This document shows positions 10,290 to 14,351 of a stretch of DNA of 32,000 nt, piece by piece (the stretch's first letter is position 1; every line of letters begins with the position of its first letter). Below the pieces are notes generated by a model. That model was given only the letters and a program-made list of their open reading frames with translations, was not told the origin of the DNA and did no database searches. The stretch comes from Haloferax volcanii DS2 (lineage in GTDB: Archaea; Halobacteriota; Halobacteria; Halobacteriales; Haloferacaceae), in NCBI RefSeq assembly GCF_000025685.1, contig NC_013967.1:480001-512000 (forward strand), in the 5' to 3' direction. A program made the position numbers and the translations under genes.

Positions 10290-11960
10290 ATGGACCTGCT
10301 TTCGCGACTCGCGGCGCTGGTCCCGGGGGTCGGGGCTCGGACGCGGACCGACGGCGGCGCACAGGCTGACGAACGAGGGACGGTCGCGGCGGCGGCCGAG
10401 CAGTTGCACGCCGGTGCCCTGCTCGACGGCGTGGGGACGCCGGTGTTCGTCCTCGACGCCGACGGGCGGGTCATCGCGTGGAACGACCCGATTACGACGC
10501 TCACGGGCGTTCCCGCGGCGGAGGCGCTCGGGTCGGAGCACGTGAGCGAACTGTTCTACCCGGACGGCCGGCGGGCGAAGACGCTCGCCGACAAGGTGCT
10601 CGACGACCCGCGGAGCGCCAACGTGGTCAACGGCCTCGACGTGGTCGACGAGGCCAGTCGGCTCTACCGCGACACCAGCACGATGACGGACCGACACGGC
10701 GCGGAGCGCCACATCGCCTTCACCGCCCAACCGCTGTTCGAGGGCGACGAACTGGTCGGCGTCGTCGAGGCGGTCCACGACCGGACCGACGCGGTGGAGA
10801 AACAGCGGGCGTCCGAGGCGCTCGTCGAGGAGGTCTCGACCACCATCGGGAGCCTCACCGCCGGCGACCTCTCGGCCCGGGCGTCGTTCACGGACGACCG
10901 CGGCGTCCTCGAAGACGAGACGCTGGCGGTCGTCTCGGACCTCAACGAGATGGCGACCCGGTTCGACCGCCTCGCCAGCGAGGTCGACGCCACGACCGCC
11001 GACCTCGGCGGGGCGATTCAGCGGGCCGCGACCGCCGCGACCGACATCGAATCGCAGGTCACGGAGCAGGCGGACCTCCTGTCGACGGGCGCAGAGGAGA
11101 TGCAGGAGCTTTCGGCCAGCATGGAGGAGATAGCGGCCACCTCTGACGAGGTCGCGTCGGCGGCGAATCAGGCCCGCGTGGCCGCCGAAAACGGCCACGA
11201 GGCCGGCCAGAGCATCCGGTCCGCGACCGACCAGGTCATCGACATCTCCGACGAACTGCTCGACAGCGTGACCGAACTCCAACAGCGCATGGTCGTCATT
11301 GAGGAGGTCGTCGAGGTCATCGCGGAGGTCGCAGACCGGACGAACCTGCTCGCGCTCAACGCGAACATCGAGGCCGCCCGCGCGGGCGAGGCCGGCGAGG
11401 GCTTCTCCGTCGTCGCCGACGAGGTCAAACAGCTCGCGAACCAGACCCACGAGCACACCGAAGAAATCGCGGACAGCATCACCGAGATTCAGGAACAGGC
11501 CGACGAGACGGTGCTGGCCTCCGAGCAGTCGCACGAGCAGATTCAGGTCGCCTCCGGCGAAATCGAGGACGTGCTCGCCTCGCTCTCCGAAATCGCCGAC
11601 GCCGCGGATTCCGCGGCCAACGGCATCACCGAGGTCGCTCGCGCGACCGACTCGCAGGCGACGAACATCGAGGAGGTCACGAGTACGATTCAGATGGCCC
11701 AAGAGCACGCGACCGCCGCCGAGGCGTCGACGACCGACATCACCGACGCGACGGCCGACCAGACGGTCGCCCTCGACGCGCTCGCTGACCGGGTGGACGC
11801 CCTCGTCGGCGGCGACGCGACGGCGGTCGAGGAACTGGACGCGATGGACTTCGACGACGCGGCCGGCAGCGCGGACGCCGACGCGGATGCCGACTCGGTT
11901 CGCGCGGCGACCGACGGCGGGTCGGACGACGAGTTCGGCGGGTTCCAGTTCGACCGGTAG
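10290..11960 (+). CDS. cytoplasmic methyl-accepting chemotaxis transducer with N-terminal PAS domain (556 aa)
   Basis: No TM segment is present. A PAS-like N-terminus ([30 protein letters not shown]...[30 protein letters not shown]) is followed by the MCP signalling domain [32 protein letters not shown]. Confidence 0.93.
11349..11417 (+). repeat. 69-nt block identical to 9403-9471
   Basis: See the partner entry. The next base differs (a versus g, Asn versus Asp), then 10 more identical nt follow. Confidence 0.9.
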
Positions 11961-12023
11961 CGCGCCTCCTTCCGAGACGGTGGCGCTGTTGGAAACCCCA
12001 CCTACTGACAGTTTGTTGAGGCC

Positions 12024-12048
12024 GTGCTGACTTGATGGAAATTCTGCT
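12024..12048 (+). repeat. left terminal inverted repeat of the IS
   Basis: 24/25 complementarity with 13463-13487. Confidence 0.85.
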
Positions 12049-12059
12049 ATCCCTGCGGA

Positions 12060-12227
12060 GCGTGAATCAAGCATGGGACGCAAGAGACCGAGCTGTATTC
12101 CGTGCCCCAGAGCACGTGGTGCTGACTGGTCCGAGTGCGAAAGAAGCCGAGTTATGGGCGTCACAGCCCGGATGCCGCCGGGAGCGGCATCCGGGAAAGC
12201 CCGCATAGGTGAAGTTCTGATTCACGC
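12060..12227 (+). ncRNA. candidate structured RNA in the IS left end (5' leader, possibly bridge-RNA-like)
   Basis: A 10-bp long-range helix pairs gcgtgaatca (12060-12069) with tgattcacgc (12218-12227). It encloses a 5-bp hairpin (12101-12116) and an internal copy of the IS terminal 9-mer gtgctgact (12119-12127). It also encloses a perfect 12-bp hairpin (12167-12195) seated on a possible lower stem, gggc/gccc plus tat/ata. There is no expression evidence. Confidence 0.3.
12167..12195 (+). other. perfect 12-bp stem / 5-nt loop hairpin in the IS left end
   Basis: CCCGGATGCCGC-cggga-GCGGCATCCGGG. Confidence 0.8.
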
Positions 12228-12243
12228 ACCGCCGTCCTATCCC

Positions 12244-12249
12244 GGAGGA
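12244..12249 (+). promoter_or_regulatory. Shine-Dalgarno-like GGAGGA for the transposase
   Basis: GGAGGA lies 7 nt upstream of the ATG at 12257. This implies a leadered mRNA, unlike most genes in this window. Confidence 0.5.
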
Positions 12250-12256
12250 ACAAGCA

Positions 12257-13255
12257 ATGTACCTCGGAATCGACTTACACAAACGGTACGCACAGGTGGC
12301 AGTAATCGACAGCGAAGGCCAGATTGTCGAAGAGGTTCGCGTCACAAACGCGAACCTCGACGATCTCGCTCGACGCTACGCTGGCTCTCGTGCGGTCATC
12401 GAGGCGACCAGCAATTACTACCACGTCTACGATACGCTCGCGGAGTACTTGGACGTAACCGTCGCTCATCCAAGTAAACTGACGCTCATCGCTCACTCCG
12501 ACAAGAAAACCGACCGCGTCGACGCCAAAGAACTCGCGCGGTTGCTTCGACTCAACTCCGTTCCGCAGAGTTACGTTCCCACCGACGAGATCAGGCAAGC
12601 CCGCGCACTCGTGCGCGGGCGACAGACATTGGTCGAAGATCGCACCAAGTTCGCCAACAAGATCCACGGCTTGCTCGCTGACAACGGTATCACCCGCGAG
12701 GTGAAGCCACTGAGCGTGAAGGGATGAGAGTTCCTCCGGGAACTCTCGCTCCCGTCCCCGTGGGACGCGTTGTTGGAGTCGTACCTCGACGTGGTTGAGA
12801 CCCTGACCGAGCAGATGACACAGCTGGAAGCTGCGATTGAGGAGCGCGCTGGGTCTCTACCCGAGACCCAGCTGCTCATGACGATTCCTGGTGTCAGTTA
12901 CTACTCCGCGTTGCTGATCTACGCAGAACTTGGAGAAGTTGATCGGTTCGACAGCCACAAGGAGGTCGTGAGTTACATGGGGCTGACCCCGACGATCCGC
13001 GAGTCCGGCGACTCGCGGATCGAGGGTGGTATCTCGAAACGTGGTTCAGGACGGGTGCGGTGGATTTTGGTTCAGAGTGCGTACTCAGCAGTGTACACGT
13101 GTAAAGACGAGTATCTGAGCCGGTTCTTCCACCGGTTGAACCGTCGGATGACCCCGAAAAAAGCAATCGTTGCGACGGCGCGAAAACTGCTCGTCTCGAT
13201 GTACTACATGCTCGTCCGGGAGGAAATCTACGATCCACCGGGGGTGAGCGCCTGA
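12257..13255 (+). pseudogene. IS110-family DEDD transposase/recombinase interrupted by an in-frame TGA at 12725-12727
   Basis: ORFs 12257..12727 and 12770..13255 are in the same frame. The N-terminal part carries the DEDD motifs GIDLHKRYAQVAVID, VIEATSNYYH and KTDRVDAKELARLL. The C-terminal part carries the Transposase_20 motifs TIPGVSYYSALLIYAELGEVDRFDSHKEVVSYMGLTPTIRESGDS...ISKRGSGRVRWIL. Read-through would give about 332 aa, a normal family length. Confidence 0.85.
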
Positions 13256-13265
13256 GGAAGGGAGT

Positions 13266-13294
13266 CTGAGGAACGCCGGACTGGCGTTCCTCAG
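13266..13294 (+). other. perfect 12-bp stem / 5-nt loop hairpin 11 nt after the transposase stop
   Basis: CTGAGGAACGCC-ggact-GGCGTTCCTCAG. Confidence 0.8.
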
Positions 13295-13389
13295 TGGCCG
13301 GATGGAACCAGCGTGAGCGACAGCTATCGCGGAACTCGTACCGACCGCCTATCGGTTGTGGAGGTCTCAATCACCACGTTGTCCAGTGG

Positions 13390-13394
13390 TTTTT
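13390..13394 (+). terminator. oligo-T tract inside the IS right end
   Basis: A T5 run lies downstream of the transposase stop and hairpin. Confidence 0.3.
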
Positions 13395-13433
13395 CACCGT
13401 TGAAGAACGAGAGACACGAGATCGTGCGAACAA

Positions 13434-13440
13434 CTTTATC
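13434..13440 (+). promoter_or_regulatory. outward-facing TATA-like box in the IS right end
   Basis: CTTTATC is centred about 27 nt upstream of the first base of the IRR (13463), reading toward the element end. Confidence 0.3.
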
Positions 13441-13462
13441 GCTAGCGGTGGTTAGTTGAGCC

Positions 13463-13487
13463 AGCAGAATCTCCATCAAGTCAGCAC
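13463..13487 (-). repeat. right terminal inverted repeat of the IS
   Basis: 24/25 complementarity with 12024-12048. Confidence 0.85.
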
Positions 13488-13538
13488 GCCACTTCTGTCA
13501 GATTCCGAGGAACGCAACGGAGCCGAGACGCGCTCTCC

Positions 13539-14351
13539 TCAGTCGAGGCTGATTGCGCAGCTCTCGACGTAGTCGATGTCCTCGATGGAGTCGACCCCGC
13601 CCTCGCCGCAGACGGGGCAGTCCGGGTTCGTCCGATACGGGACCGTCTCGAACGTCATGTCCATTGCGTCGTAAAACAGGAGTCGCCCGTCGAGCGCCTC
13701 GCCCTCATCCAGCAGGAGTTTCATCGCCTCCGTCGCCTGAATACAGCCGACCGTGCCGGGGAGGACGCCGAGGACGCCGGTCGTCGCGCAGTCGGGGACC
13801 GTCCCCGGCTCGGGCGCTTCGGGGAACAGACATCGATAGCAGGGTCCGTCGGGGACGAGCGTCGTCGCCTGTCCCTCGAACTTGTATATCGCGCCGTGGA
13901 CCAGCGGGATTCCCTCGAAGCGACAGACGTCGTTGAGGAGATAGCGCGTCGGGAAGTTGTCCGAGGCGTCGACCACCACGTCCGAACCCGCGACGACCTC
14001 GTGGACGTTCGATTTGTCCACGCGGGCTTCGACCGGTTCGACCGACACGTCGGGGTTGAGCCCGCGGACGAACGCGGCGGCGCTCTCGGCCTTCGGCGTC
14101 CCCACGTCGTCGTCGCAGTGGACGACCTGCCGCTGGAGGTTGCTCCGCTCGACCACGTCGTCGTCGACCACGACGAGTTCGCCGACGCCGACCGCCGCGA
14201 GGTACTGGATGGCCGGCGCGCCCAACCCGCCCGCGCCGACGACGACGACCCGCGACGAGAGCAGTCGCCCTTGGCCCTCCGGGCCGACCTCGTCCATGAT
14301 GATGTGCCGCGAGTAGCGGTCCAACTGGGTGGCGTCGAGTGAGAGCGTCAT
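13539..14351 (-). CDS. ubaA: SAMP-activating E1-like enzyme UbaA (MoeB/ThiF family, 270 aa)
   Basis: The protein begins MTLSLDATQLDRYSRHIIMDEVGPEGQ and carries the GAGGLG nucleotide loop. It also has the CYRC and CPVC zinc motifs and the active-site Cys at position 188 (VPDCATTG). The track ORF (to 14594) is over-extended by 81 codons. A TATA-like CTTTATT (14376-14382, minus sense) lies 28 nt upstream of the ATG at 14351. Confidence 0.95.
   Translation of the reverse strand: MTLSLDATQLDRYSRHIIMDEVGPEGQGRLLSSRVVVVGAGGLGAPAIQYLAAVGVGELVVVDDDVVERSNLQRQVVHCDDDVGTPKAESAAAFVRGLNPDVSVEPVEARVDKSNVHEVVAGSDVVVDASDNFPTRYLLNDVCRFEGIPLVHGAIYKFEGQATTLVPDGPCYRCLFPEAPEPGTVPDCATTGVLGVLPGTVGCIQATEAMKLLLDEGEALDGRLLFYDAMDMTFETVPYRTNPDCPVCGEGGVDSIEDIDYVESCAISLD

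Follow-up and report, generated by a model that had tools for sequence, protein, structure and literature searches.

The question raised by this locus is whether the non-coding left end of an IS110-family element in the chromosome of Haloferax volcanii DS2 encodes a guide RNA for the recombinase encoded next to it and, if so, which of its nucleotides read the target and which the ends of the element. To our knowledge, bridge and seek RNAs have so far been tested in bacterial elements only. We analysed a window of 32,000 nt (NC_013967.1, positions 480,001 to 512,000); coordinates below are those of this window, and the features are given on the + strand. The first-pass annotation, drawn from the window sequence, had proposed that the left end may serve as a bispecific, bridge-RNA-like guide. 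All the left-end features that it listed (helices, hairpins, an internal 9-mer and a GGAGGA sequence at 12244-12249) were found where it had placed them, and its main proposal was borne out by comparison with relatives, in which the helices covary and the loops covary with both the insertion flanks and the element ends. From these data, the left non-coding end, about 12049-12232 on the + strand, is very probably the gene for a bridge RNA (seekRNA). The kind of system is already known, and the left-end RNA of a near relative, ISHvo9, has already been listed (Durrant et al. 2024). What is new here is the guide-level anatomy of an archaeal clade, namely guides, core, donor ends and natural target, as read from sequence.

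The element, its relatives and its boundaries

At 12030-13476 the window carries an ISHvo9-like insertion sequence, here a defective copy, of the IS110 family with IS1111-type features. Its recombinase gene (12257-13255, ATG at 12257, preceded by the Shine-Dalgarno sequence GGAGGA) sits between two non-coding ends of 233 nt each, and the left end (12030-12256) adjoins it directly upstream. The protein matches the Pfam families PF01548 (DEDD_Tnp_IS110) and PF02371 (Transposase_20) as well as NCBIfam NF033542, 'IS110 family RNA-guided transposase'. It is 332 aa long, with the motif GLTPTIRESG, and its residues D6, E49, D86, D89, S250 and G251 are invariant among relatives. Length and motif lie within the range given for IS1111 recombinases, 330-350 aa with GLxPxxxxS(T)G (PMC11187229). 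An in-frame TGA at 12725-12727 (CGA to TGA) breaks the gene at a position that is Arg in more than 90% of homologs (R157, nearly invariant). Because of this stop codon, a full-length recombinase is impossible from the window copy. Upstream of the element lies a PAS/MCP transducer gene and downstream, on the opposite strand, a ThiF-family gene.

With the repaired recombinase as query, 1476 database relatives were found at E <= 1e-20, nearly all of them Halobacteria proteins of 332 aa. When species-representative genomes were scanned, 80 loci were obtained, in 61 of which both ends could be located. Hosts of intact copies include Haloferax volcanii (ISHvo9), Natrinema gelatinilyticum BND6 (at least 9 copies) and Halobellus marinus DFY28. 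The closest locus, in a Salinigranum MAG, shows 92% identity. The recombinase is about 88% identical to that of ISHvo9, over the trimmed sequence printed in the supplementary table of Durrant et al.; as judged from sequence, the window element is distinct from ISHvo9, its identity being below that usually used for the same IS.

Both junctions are constant in the family: the left one reads NNNNN-TG-ACTCG-ATGG... and the right one ...CCAT-AGG-TG-NNNN. The 4-5 nt preceding TGACT differ among elements and match a variable block, block B, of the left end of the same element. A dinucleotide TG (12028-12029 at the left junction of the window copy) is found at both junctions in 60 relatives; it occurs once per uninterrupted target site, as against both sides of an inserted element. 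Empty sites inside the fetched loci read GTGC-TG-AATACAG, and one uninterrupted site, in locus L067, reads ...CTGTTGAAATCC...GGAGCC-GTGC-TG-AATACAG-AGCGCG. These uninterrupted sites identify GTGC as target DNA and TG as the core, and have the element begin at ACTCG, in the window at A12030. By the junction table, GTGC at 12024-12027 is therefore the left target flank (LT), host DNA outside the element, and the true left terminus (12030-12048) consists of ACTTG, the right-donor half (RD), and a subterminal repeat. A pattern search for this 14-nt inverted repeat, ATGGAAATTCTGCT, gave 12035-12048 as one copy and 13463-13476 as the inverted one. Between the repeat and the end of the element there are 5 nt on the left and, where the right end is normal, 3 nt. 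Its length is within the 7-17 bp of IS1111 subterminal inverted repeats, and at 14 nt it does not fit the IS621-like IS110 group.

These junctions also settle how far a 26-nt inverted repeat that bounds the window copy (12023-12048 with 13463-13488) can be taken as the ends. Judging from the sequences of the relatives, it cannot: the element begins at 12030 and, as seen in intact relatives, finishes with ...CCATAGG. The 26-nt repeat at the termini, which the first-pass annotation had treated as a property of the element, is confined to the window copy, the relatives having the 14-nt subterminal repeat. A similar correction applies to the 9-mer at 12024, earlier regarded as the terminus. Its last three bases, ACT, do belong to the element, whereas GTGC is flanking target and TG the shared core.

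Probable target guides in the left end

Across the 61 related haloarchaeal elements the left end is near-constant apart from two hypervariable blocks, both of which correspond to the DNA into which the respective element is inserted. Block A, the right-target guide (RTG), is CTGTATTC at 12093-12100 in the window; its reverse complement, GAATACAG, equals the core G followed by the right flank AATACAG. As measured by the longest common substring, the reverse complement of block A had 7 nt or more in common with the right flank of its own element in 32 of 47 cases, compared with 0.7% of non-cognate pairs (permutation 0/5000). About a third of the right flanks match their own guide by less than 7 nt. 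Block B comprises the 4-5 nt ahead of an invariant TGACTGG and is GTGC at 12119-12122 in the window. It is the left-target guide, recognized by its identity with the flank and followed by the core TG and the extension ACT (12119-12127 in total). Identity between block B and left-flank positions -1 to -4 was 92-98% for cognate pairs and 30-66% for non-cognate (different-guide) pairs, and none of 5000 permutations did as well. In all, 22 distinct left and 25 distinct right guide classes could be told apart.

The left flank is thus matched in sense and the right flank in antisense. This is the strand pattern defined for bridge RNAs, for which strand rules for all four guides have been published (PMC11208160), and we assigned the two blocks as target guides. 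Block A lies 5' of block B (12119-12124), which is the guide order of IS1111-type elements (PMC11187229). Together, the two blocks would specify the site GTGC-TG-AATACAG, and the closest complete relative, from Salinigranum rubrum (L081), specifies the same site. In another subfamily the blocks are TCTGT and GGATTTCA, aimed at CTCTGT-TG-AAATCC. The ACT that follows block B corresponds to the first 3 nt of the element and changes to ATT together with the element end in L023, L026 and L030.

This assignment bears on two earlier proposals. The 9-mer GTGCTGACT was indeed found to recur beyond chance: it stands at positions 12024 and 12119 and, in inverted form, at 13479-13487. These three occurrences compare with 0.16 expected in the whole window, and 0/100 shuffles had as many. 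Its internal copy had been proposed as a donor guide; it is instead the left-target guide GTGC plus the core TG plus ACT, and the segments matching the donor ends lie elsewhere, at 12148-12153 and 12204-12211. An alternative agcac/gtgct pairing, suggested earlier for the same region, was rejected because gtgct is the variable left-target guide.

Probable donor guides in the left end

Two constant segments of the left end match the ends of the element itself, CGAGT(T) the left end and CATAGGTG the right end. The former is the right-donor guide (RDG), CGAGTT at 12148-12153, which is antisense to the core G plus ACTCG or ACTTG, with G-U wobbles in the window copy. In most elements its reverse complement is GACTCG, the left end, and it becomes GATTCG or AATTCG where the element end is GATTCG. 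Indeed, in L023, L026 and L030 such ends occur together with a CGAAT(C/T) guide and with TGATT in the target loop. The RDG spans just 5-7 nt, and several lineages have an imperfect one, with TTCTCG or GCCTCG as reverse complement, for instance.

The left-donor guide (LDG) comprises CATAGG, the core TG and an extension AA (12204-12213), and agrees with the terminus CCATAGG-TG of the relatives. The part at 12204-12211 is a sense copy of this normal right terminus, and it shifts with it, to AGAGG in L063 and to ATACG in L064 and L072. Each sense guide continues 2-3 nt beyond the core, with ACT in the first arm and AA in the second (12212-12213). When the 2-nt extension of the LDG was compared with the right flank, position 1 agreed in 98% (control 63%) and position 2 in 86% (control 21%). 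The core G is covered by all four guides and the core T by the two sense guides only. Covariation of the donor guides comprises few independent events, in three or four lineages, and gives them weaker support than the target loop has.

Predicted secondary structure of the left-end RNA

The structure (the closing helix P1, a basal stem, a 5-bp hairpin, a GGGC/GCCC stem and a 12-bp hairpin) was tested on 54 distinct sequences in an alignment of homologous left ends, the comparison that the first-pass annotation had named as a check on its helices. Changes on both sides of a pair were seen at 16 pairs, compared with 6.6 in shuffles, of which 0/500 reached 16; common ancestry inflates such shuffle statistics. 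Over the whole structure 90.8% of the cells were paired, as against 23-38% when the partners were slid by 1-3 columns.

P1 closes the RNA domain and pairs 12060-12069 with 12218-12227. In the window it is exact over 10 bp, or extends over 15 nt with one mismatch as 12055-12069/12218-12232. Four of its pairs (alignment pairs 42:206, 43:205, 44:204 and 45:203) change on both sides yet stay paired, so that this long-range helix, already noticed in the window, is supported by compensatory changes; pair 44:204 is an A-C mismatch in 22 of the 54 sequences. The outer extension of P1 (12055-12059/12228-12232) was rejected as unconserved, with columns 33, 34 and 36 mostly unpaired.

The target-binding loop stands on a newly found basal stem, GACCG/TGGTC, pairing 12086-12090 with 12127-12131. 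All of its cells (100%) are paired, with compensatory changes in L021 (G-C to A-U) and in L007 and L078 (A-U to G-C). The loop is topped by the hairpin CGTGC/GCACG (12101-12116), in which three of the five pairs have changed on both sides, for example in L004, L055, L064 and L065. The upper part of the donor-binding arm (12156-12202) consists of a lower stem, an internal loop and a perfect 12-bp hairpin. The lower stem, GGGC at 12156-12159 with GCCC at 12199-12202, is invariant in the alignment, and so are two parts of the conserved internal loop (GTCACAG facing AAA), namely CAG and AAA. The covariation in this arm is in the hairpin (12167-12178/12184-12195), which has 99.5% of its cells paired and four pairs changed on both sides, among them 152:175 in 18 sequences and 153:174 in 30. 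The left end has, then, the conserved stem-loops carrying internal loops of a bridge RNA: P1 and two arms, with compensatory changes. Locus L080, whose protein is 58% identical, forms P1 plus the same two-arm architecture when folded by itself; its P1 is a 9-bp helix at the same place with the unrelated sequence GCAUGGACU/AGUCCAUGC.

G-U pairs are fixed on the + strand at 68:108 (54/54) and 136:187 (52/54), which favours an RNA from this strand. Compared with shuffled sequences, the folding energy gave z = -2.67 for the 233-nt left end and z = -3.76 for 12049-12240, where 0/200 shuffles were as good. The single-sequence minimum free energy fold of the first arm, GCAUGGGA with UUCCGUGC, was rejected; it conflicts with the covarying stem 12086-12090/12127-12131. 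RNAalifold prefers other closing helices, 53-58/217-222 and 116-120/209-213, and these (GGGACG/CGTCCC and GTGCG/CGCAC) are almost invariant. When 11900-13600 was scanned against Rfam 15, with E values of up to 10 allowed, chance-level matches alone came up and none in the left end.

Proposed mechanism and alternative explanations

In the mechanism that we propose, P1 would close a domain with two arms, one carrying the target-binding and the other the donor-binding loop. Carrying the RNA, a tetramer of the DEDD recombinase would bring about recombination at TG between the circular junction CCATAGG-TG-ACTCGATGG and the target. The circle junction would then read ...CAGCAGAATTTCCATAGG-TG-ACTCGATGGAAATTCTGCT..., the donor carrying CCATAGGTGACTCGATGG and the target GGTGCTGAATACAGC. 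The structure and the guide correspondences described above are seen in the sequences; transcription of the left-end RNA, its binding by the protein and catalysis are inferred.

Other explanations have to be weighed against this one. The left end might be no more than the folded 5' leader of the mRNA for the recombinase, with a role in, for example, translational control or stability, and its matches to flanks and ends would then not guide anything. The Shine-Dalgarno sequence at 12244-12249 follows the region directly, the GGGACG/CGTCCC pairing preferred by RNAalifold adjoins this ribosome-binding site, so that the region could affect translation, and no separate promoter or terminator of a small RNA was identified. 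A leader, however, gives no reason why two hypervariable blocks should copy host DNA from outside the element in a guide-like strand pattern, nor why other segments should track variant element ends. We therefore consider it improbable that the left end is a leader and nothing else; it may serve as both leader and guide. The reading in which the internal 9-mer is a donor guide for a terminal 9-mer, and 26-nt terminal inverted repeats form the ends of the element, has a very small chance of being right. It draws on the 9-mer at both ends of the window copy, once inverted, and on the last five bases, TG and ACT, which do belong to core and element. Against it, the right end of 60 relatives is CCATAGGTG plus flank and not the inverted 9-mer, bases 1-4 of the 9-mer change as the flank does and occur in empty sites without an element, and the donor ends are matched by the RDG and LDG segments.

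Since the element has IS1111 features such as the 14-nt subterminal repeat and GLxPxxxxSG, its guide RNA could also be sought on the right, in the non-coding end downstream of the gene, which is where canonical IS1111 elements have it, the left end having another role. The right end is equally long (233 nt) and folds similarly (z = -2.66), and ISHvo10 has been named as an exception, with a long non-coding region on each side (Siddiquee et al. 2024, PMC11187229). As the right end folds about equally well, single-sequence folding does not discriminate between the two ends, but the comparative data do. On neither strand of the right end did we find an excess of target matches, the mean longest match being 5.3 nt as against 7.1-7.2 nt for the left end. 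In the alignment of the relatives one hairpin was the sole conserved structure, and the right end is poorly conserved except for this hairpin and the last ~45 nt. The covariance models of Durrant et al., furthermore, put the RNA of ISHvo9 in the left end. An RNA gene on the right is, in our estimate, the least probable of these alternatives, with next to no weight, and we retain the left end as the predicted RNA gene.

Relation to known guide RNAs

The nearest described elements are ISHvo9 and ISHvo10 of Haloferax volcanii, assigned by ISfinder to the IS1111 group of the IS110 family; like the window element, they have a predicted left-end RNA, and ISHvo10 also has a long non-coding region on either side. 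For both of them, Durrant et al. 2024 (PMC11208160) give in Supplementary Table 5 'Detected Bridge RNA End = LE, group IS1111'. These published entries name the RNA-bearing end only, without guides, core, target or structure. An upstream RNA or a long region as an exception to the IS1111 pattern has been noted before for ISMtsp17, ISHvo10 and ISHvo9. According to the first-pass annotation, no haloarchaeal example was known to have been characterised. In the literature we likewise found no experimental work on any haloarchaeal member and no transcript evidence, but a prediction of the left-end RNA already existed for ISHvo9 and ISHvo10 (Durrant et al. 2024). A small-RNA study of Haloferax volcanii reported very abundant antisense RNAs at the two IS110-family transposase genes HVO_RS07375 and HVO_RS02445, a signal not resolved to the left-end region (PMC5892119).

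With the IS1111 seekRNA elements ISEc11, ISKpn4 and ISPa11 (PMC11187229) the window element shares the subterminal repeats, the recombinase size of about 330-350 aa and its motif GLxPxxxxSG, a segment complementary to the top strand 5' of the one complementary to the bottom strand, and insertion in one orientation into a repeated sequence. It differs in its archaeal host and in the explicit donor guides in its second arm. Furthermore, IS1111 seekRNAs are encoded downstream of the recombinase gene, whereas the RNA of the window element lies upstream, so that in this respect it is not of the IS1111 type.

With the bridge RNA of IS621 (PMC11208160, PMC11208158) it shares the position in the left end, two internal loops, the inclusion of the core in the pairings and, in each loop, two guides, of which the bottom-strand one serves the left half and the top-strand one the right half. 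The strand order per loop is reversed with respect to IS621, with the top-strand guide on the 5' side; the core is TG here and CT in IS621, and the subterminal repeat has 14 nt as compared with 2-3 nt. Once strands have been exchanged, the handshake guides of IS621 pair with the non-cognate partner (Hiraizumi et al. 2024, PMC11208158). A short extension of the guide on the 3' side matches the non-cognate partner in both systems and is handshake-like here, where it sits on the bottom-strand guide.

The clade documents natural retargeting, with at least 22 left-guide and at least 25 right-guide variants and with subfamilies that aim at different positions of one intergenic repeat of about 75 nt. 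It offers a ready design for trials of programmable recombination in haloarchaea such as Haloferax volcanii, and a data point on the move of the RNA gene between the ends of IS110-family elements.

The right end and the rearrangement of the window copy

Just past the stop codon lies the conserved hairpin of the right end (13266-13294), for which compensatory changes were seen in relatives: pair 58:76 is GC in 12 and CG in 12 sequences, and pair 60:74 is CG in 18 and AU in 5. It has 12 bp, overlaps the recombinase stop codon in some relatives and has no T-run after it. This hairpin may define the 3' end of the mRNA. Further downstream, in the conserved last ~45 nt, an A/T-rich box, ACAACTTTATCG at 13430-13441, is found about 27 nt upstream of the right repeat and at the same position in all relatives. 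We take it for a possible TATA box of archaeal type that faces outward, in which case transcription would run across the circle junction or, in integrated copies, into the right flank.

The right terminus of the window copy (13463-13488) is aberrant according to the junction table. The right subterminal repeat AGCAGAATCTCCAT (13463-13476) is followed by CAAGT-CA-GCACG, and the resulting CCAT-CAAGT-CA-GCACG is the inverted left junction of the same copy, replacing AGG-TG and the right flank. This was the case in 1 of 62 copies. Beyond the two ends of the element, the window held no normal right terminus, no uninterrupted target and no further copy of the repeat, and the right half of the target (AATACAG...) is absent from it. 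The left flank (11981-12036) resembles the left half of the target repeat in direct orientation (nhmmer E = 0.019), and the right flank (13463-13528) resembles the same half inverted (nhmmer E = 0.004). The RNA gene of the window copy is intact. The copy as such is probably immobile, because its recombinase has a premature stop and its right end is without the AGG-TG that the donor loop reads.

Our best guess for the aberrant junction, on the sequence at hand, involves a second copy, inverted and in a neighbouring target, with the DNA from the right repeat of the window copy to the left repeat of that second copy deleted. The crossover of such a deletion would fall inside the 14-nt repeats, which would be direct repeats in that arrangement. 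A wider reading would make the haloarchaeal clade a natural hybrid of two IS110 subgroups and the window copy a natural rearrangement footprint; taken jointly, we regard the two as rather unlikely. In the hybrid, an IS1111-type recombinase, long subterminal repeats and the IS1111 guide order would go together with an RNA encoded upstream, yet made mainly from the circular form by transcripts that start at the A/T box and run over the junction, with a 5' hairpin formed by the two 14-nt repeats. As a footprint, the copy would lie between two inverted left halves of the target repeat and would record an RNA-guided or repeat-mediated event in an archaeal chromosome, one route being a deletion between two copies of opposite orientation.

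As their natural target, the insertion sequences use an intergenic repeat of about 75 nt, CTGTTGAAATCC..GGTGAT..TTT..GGCC-GTGCTGAATAcAG-AGCGCGAATGTcGCAC, which is present in many haloarchaeal genera. Examples are found in L067 (- strand, ~1994-2034), in L040 (2700-2760) and in the window (11966-12029), where the repeat lies after the stop codons of both convergent genes. One IS subfamily inserts into it at CTGT-TG-AAATCC and another about 40 nt downstream, at GTGC-TG-AATACAG. Unusual right junctions were also seen in two relatives: in L007 (2574-2610) the junction CCAT-CTATGAG is unfit to the guides, and in L071 (2679-2720) the right flank matches 12 nt of the element's own right end, which suggests further rearranged or off-target copies.
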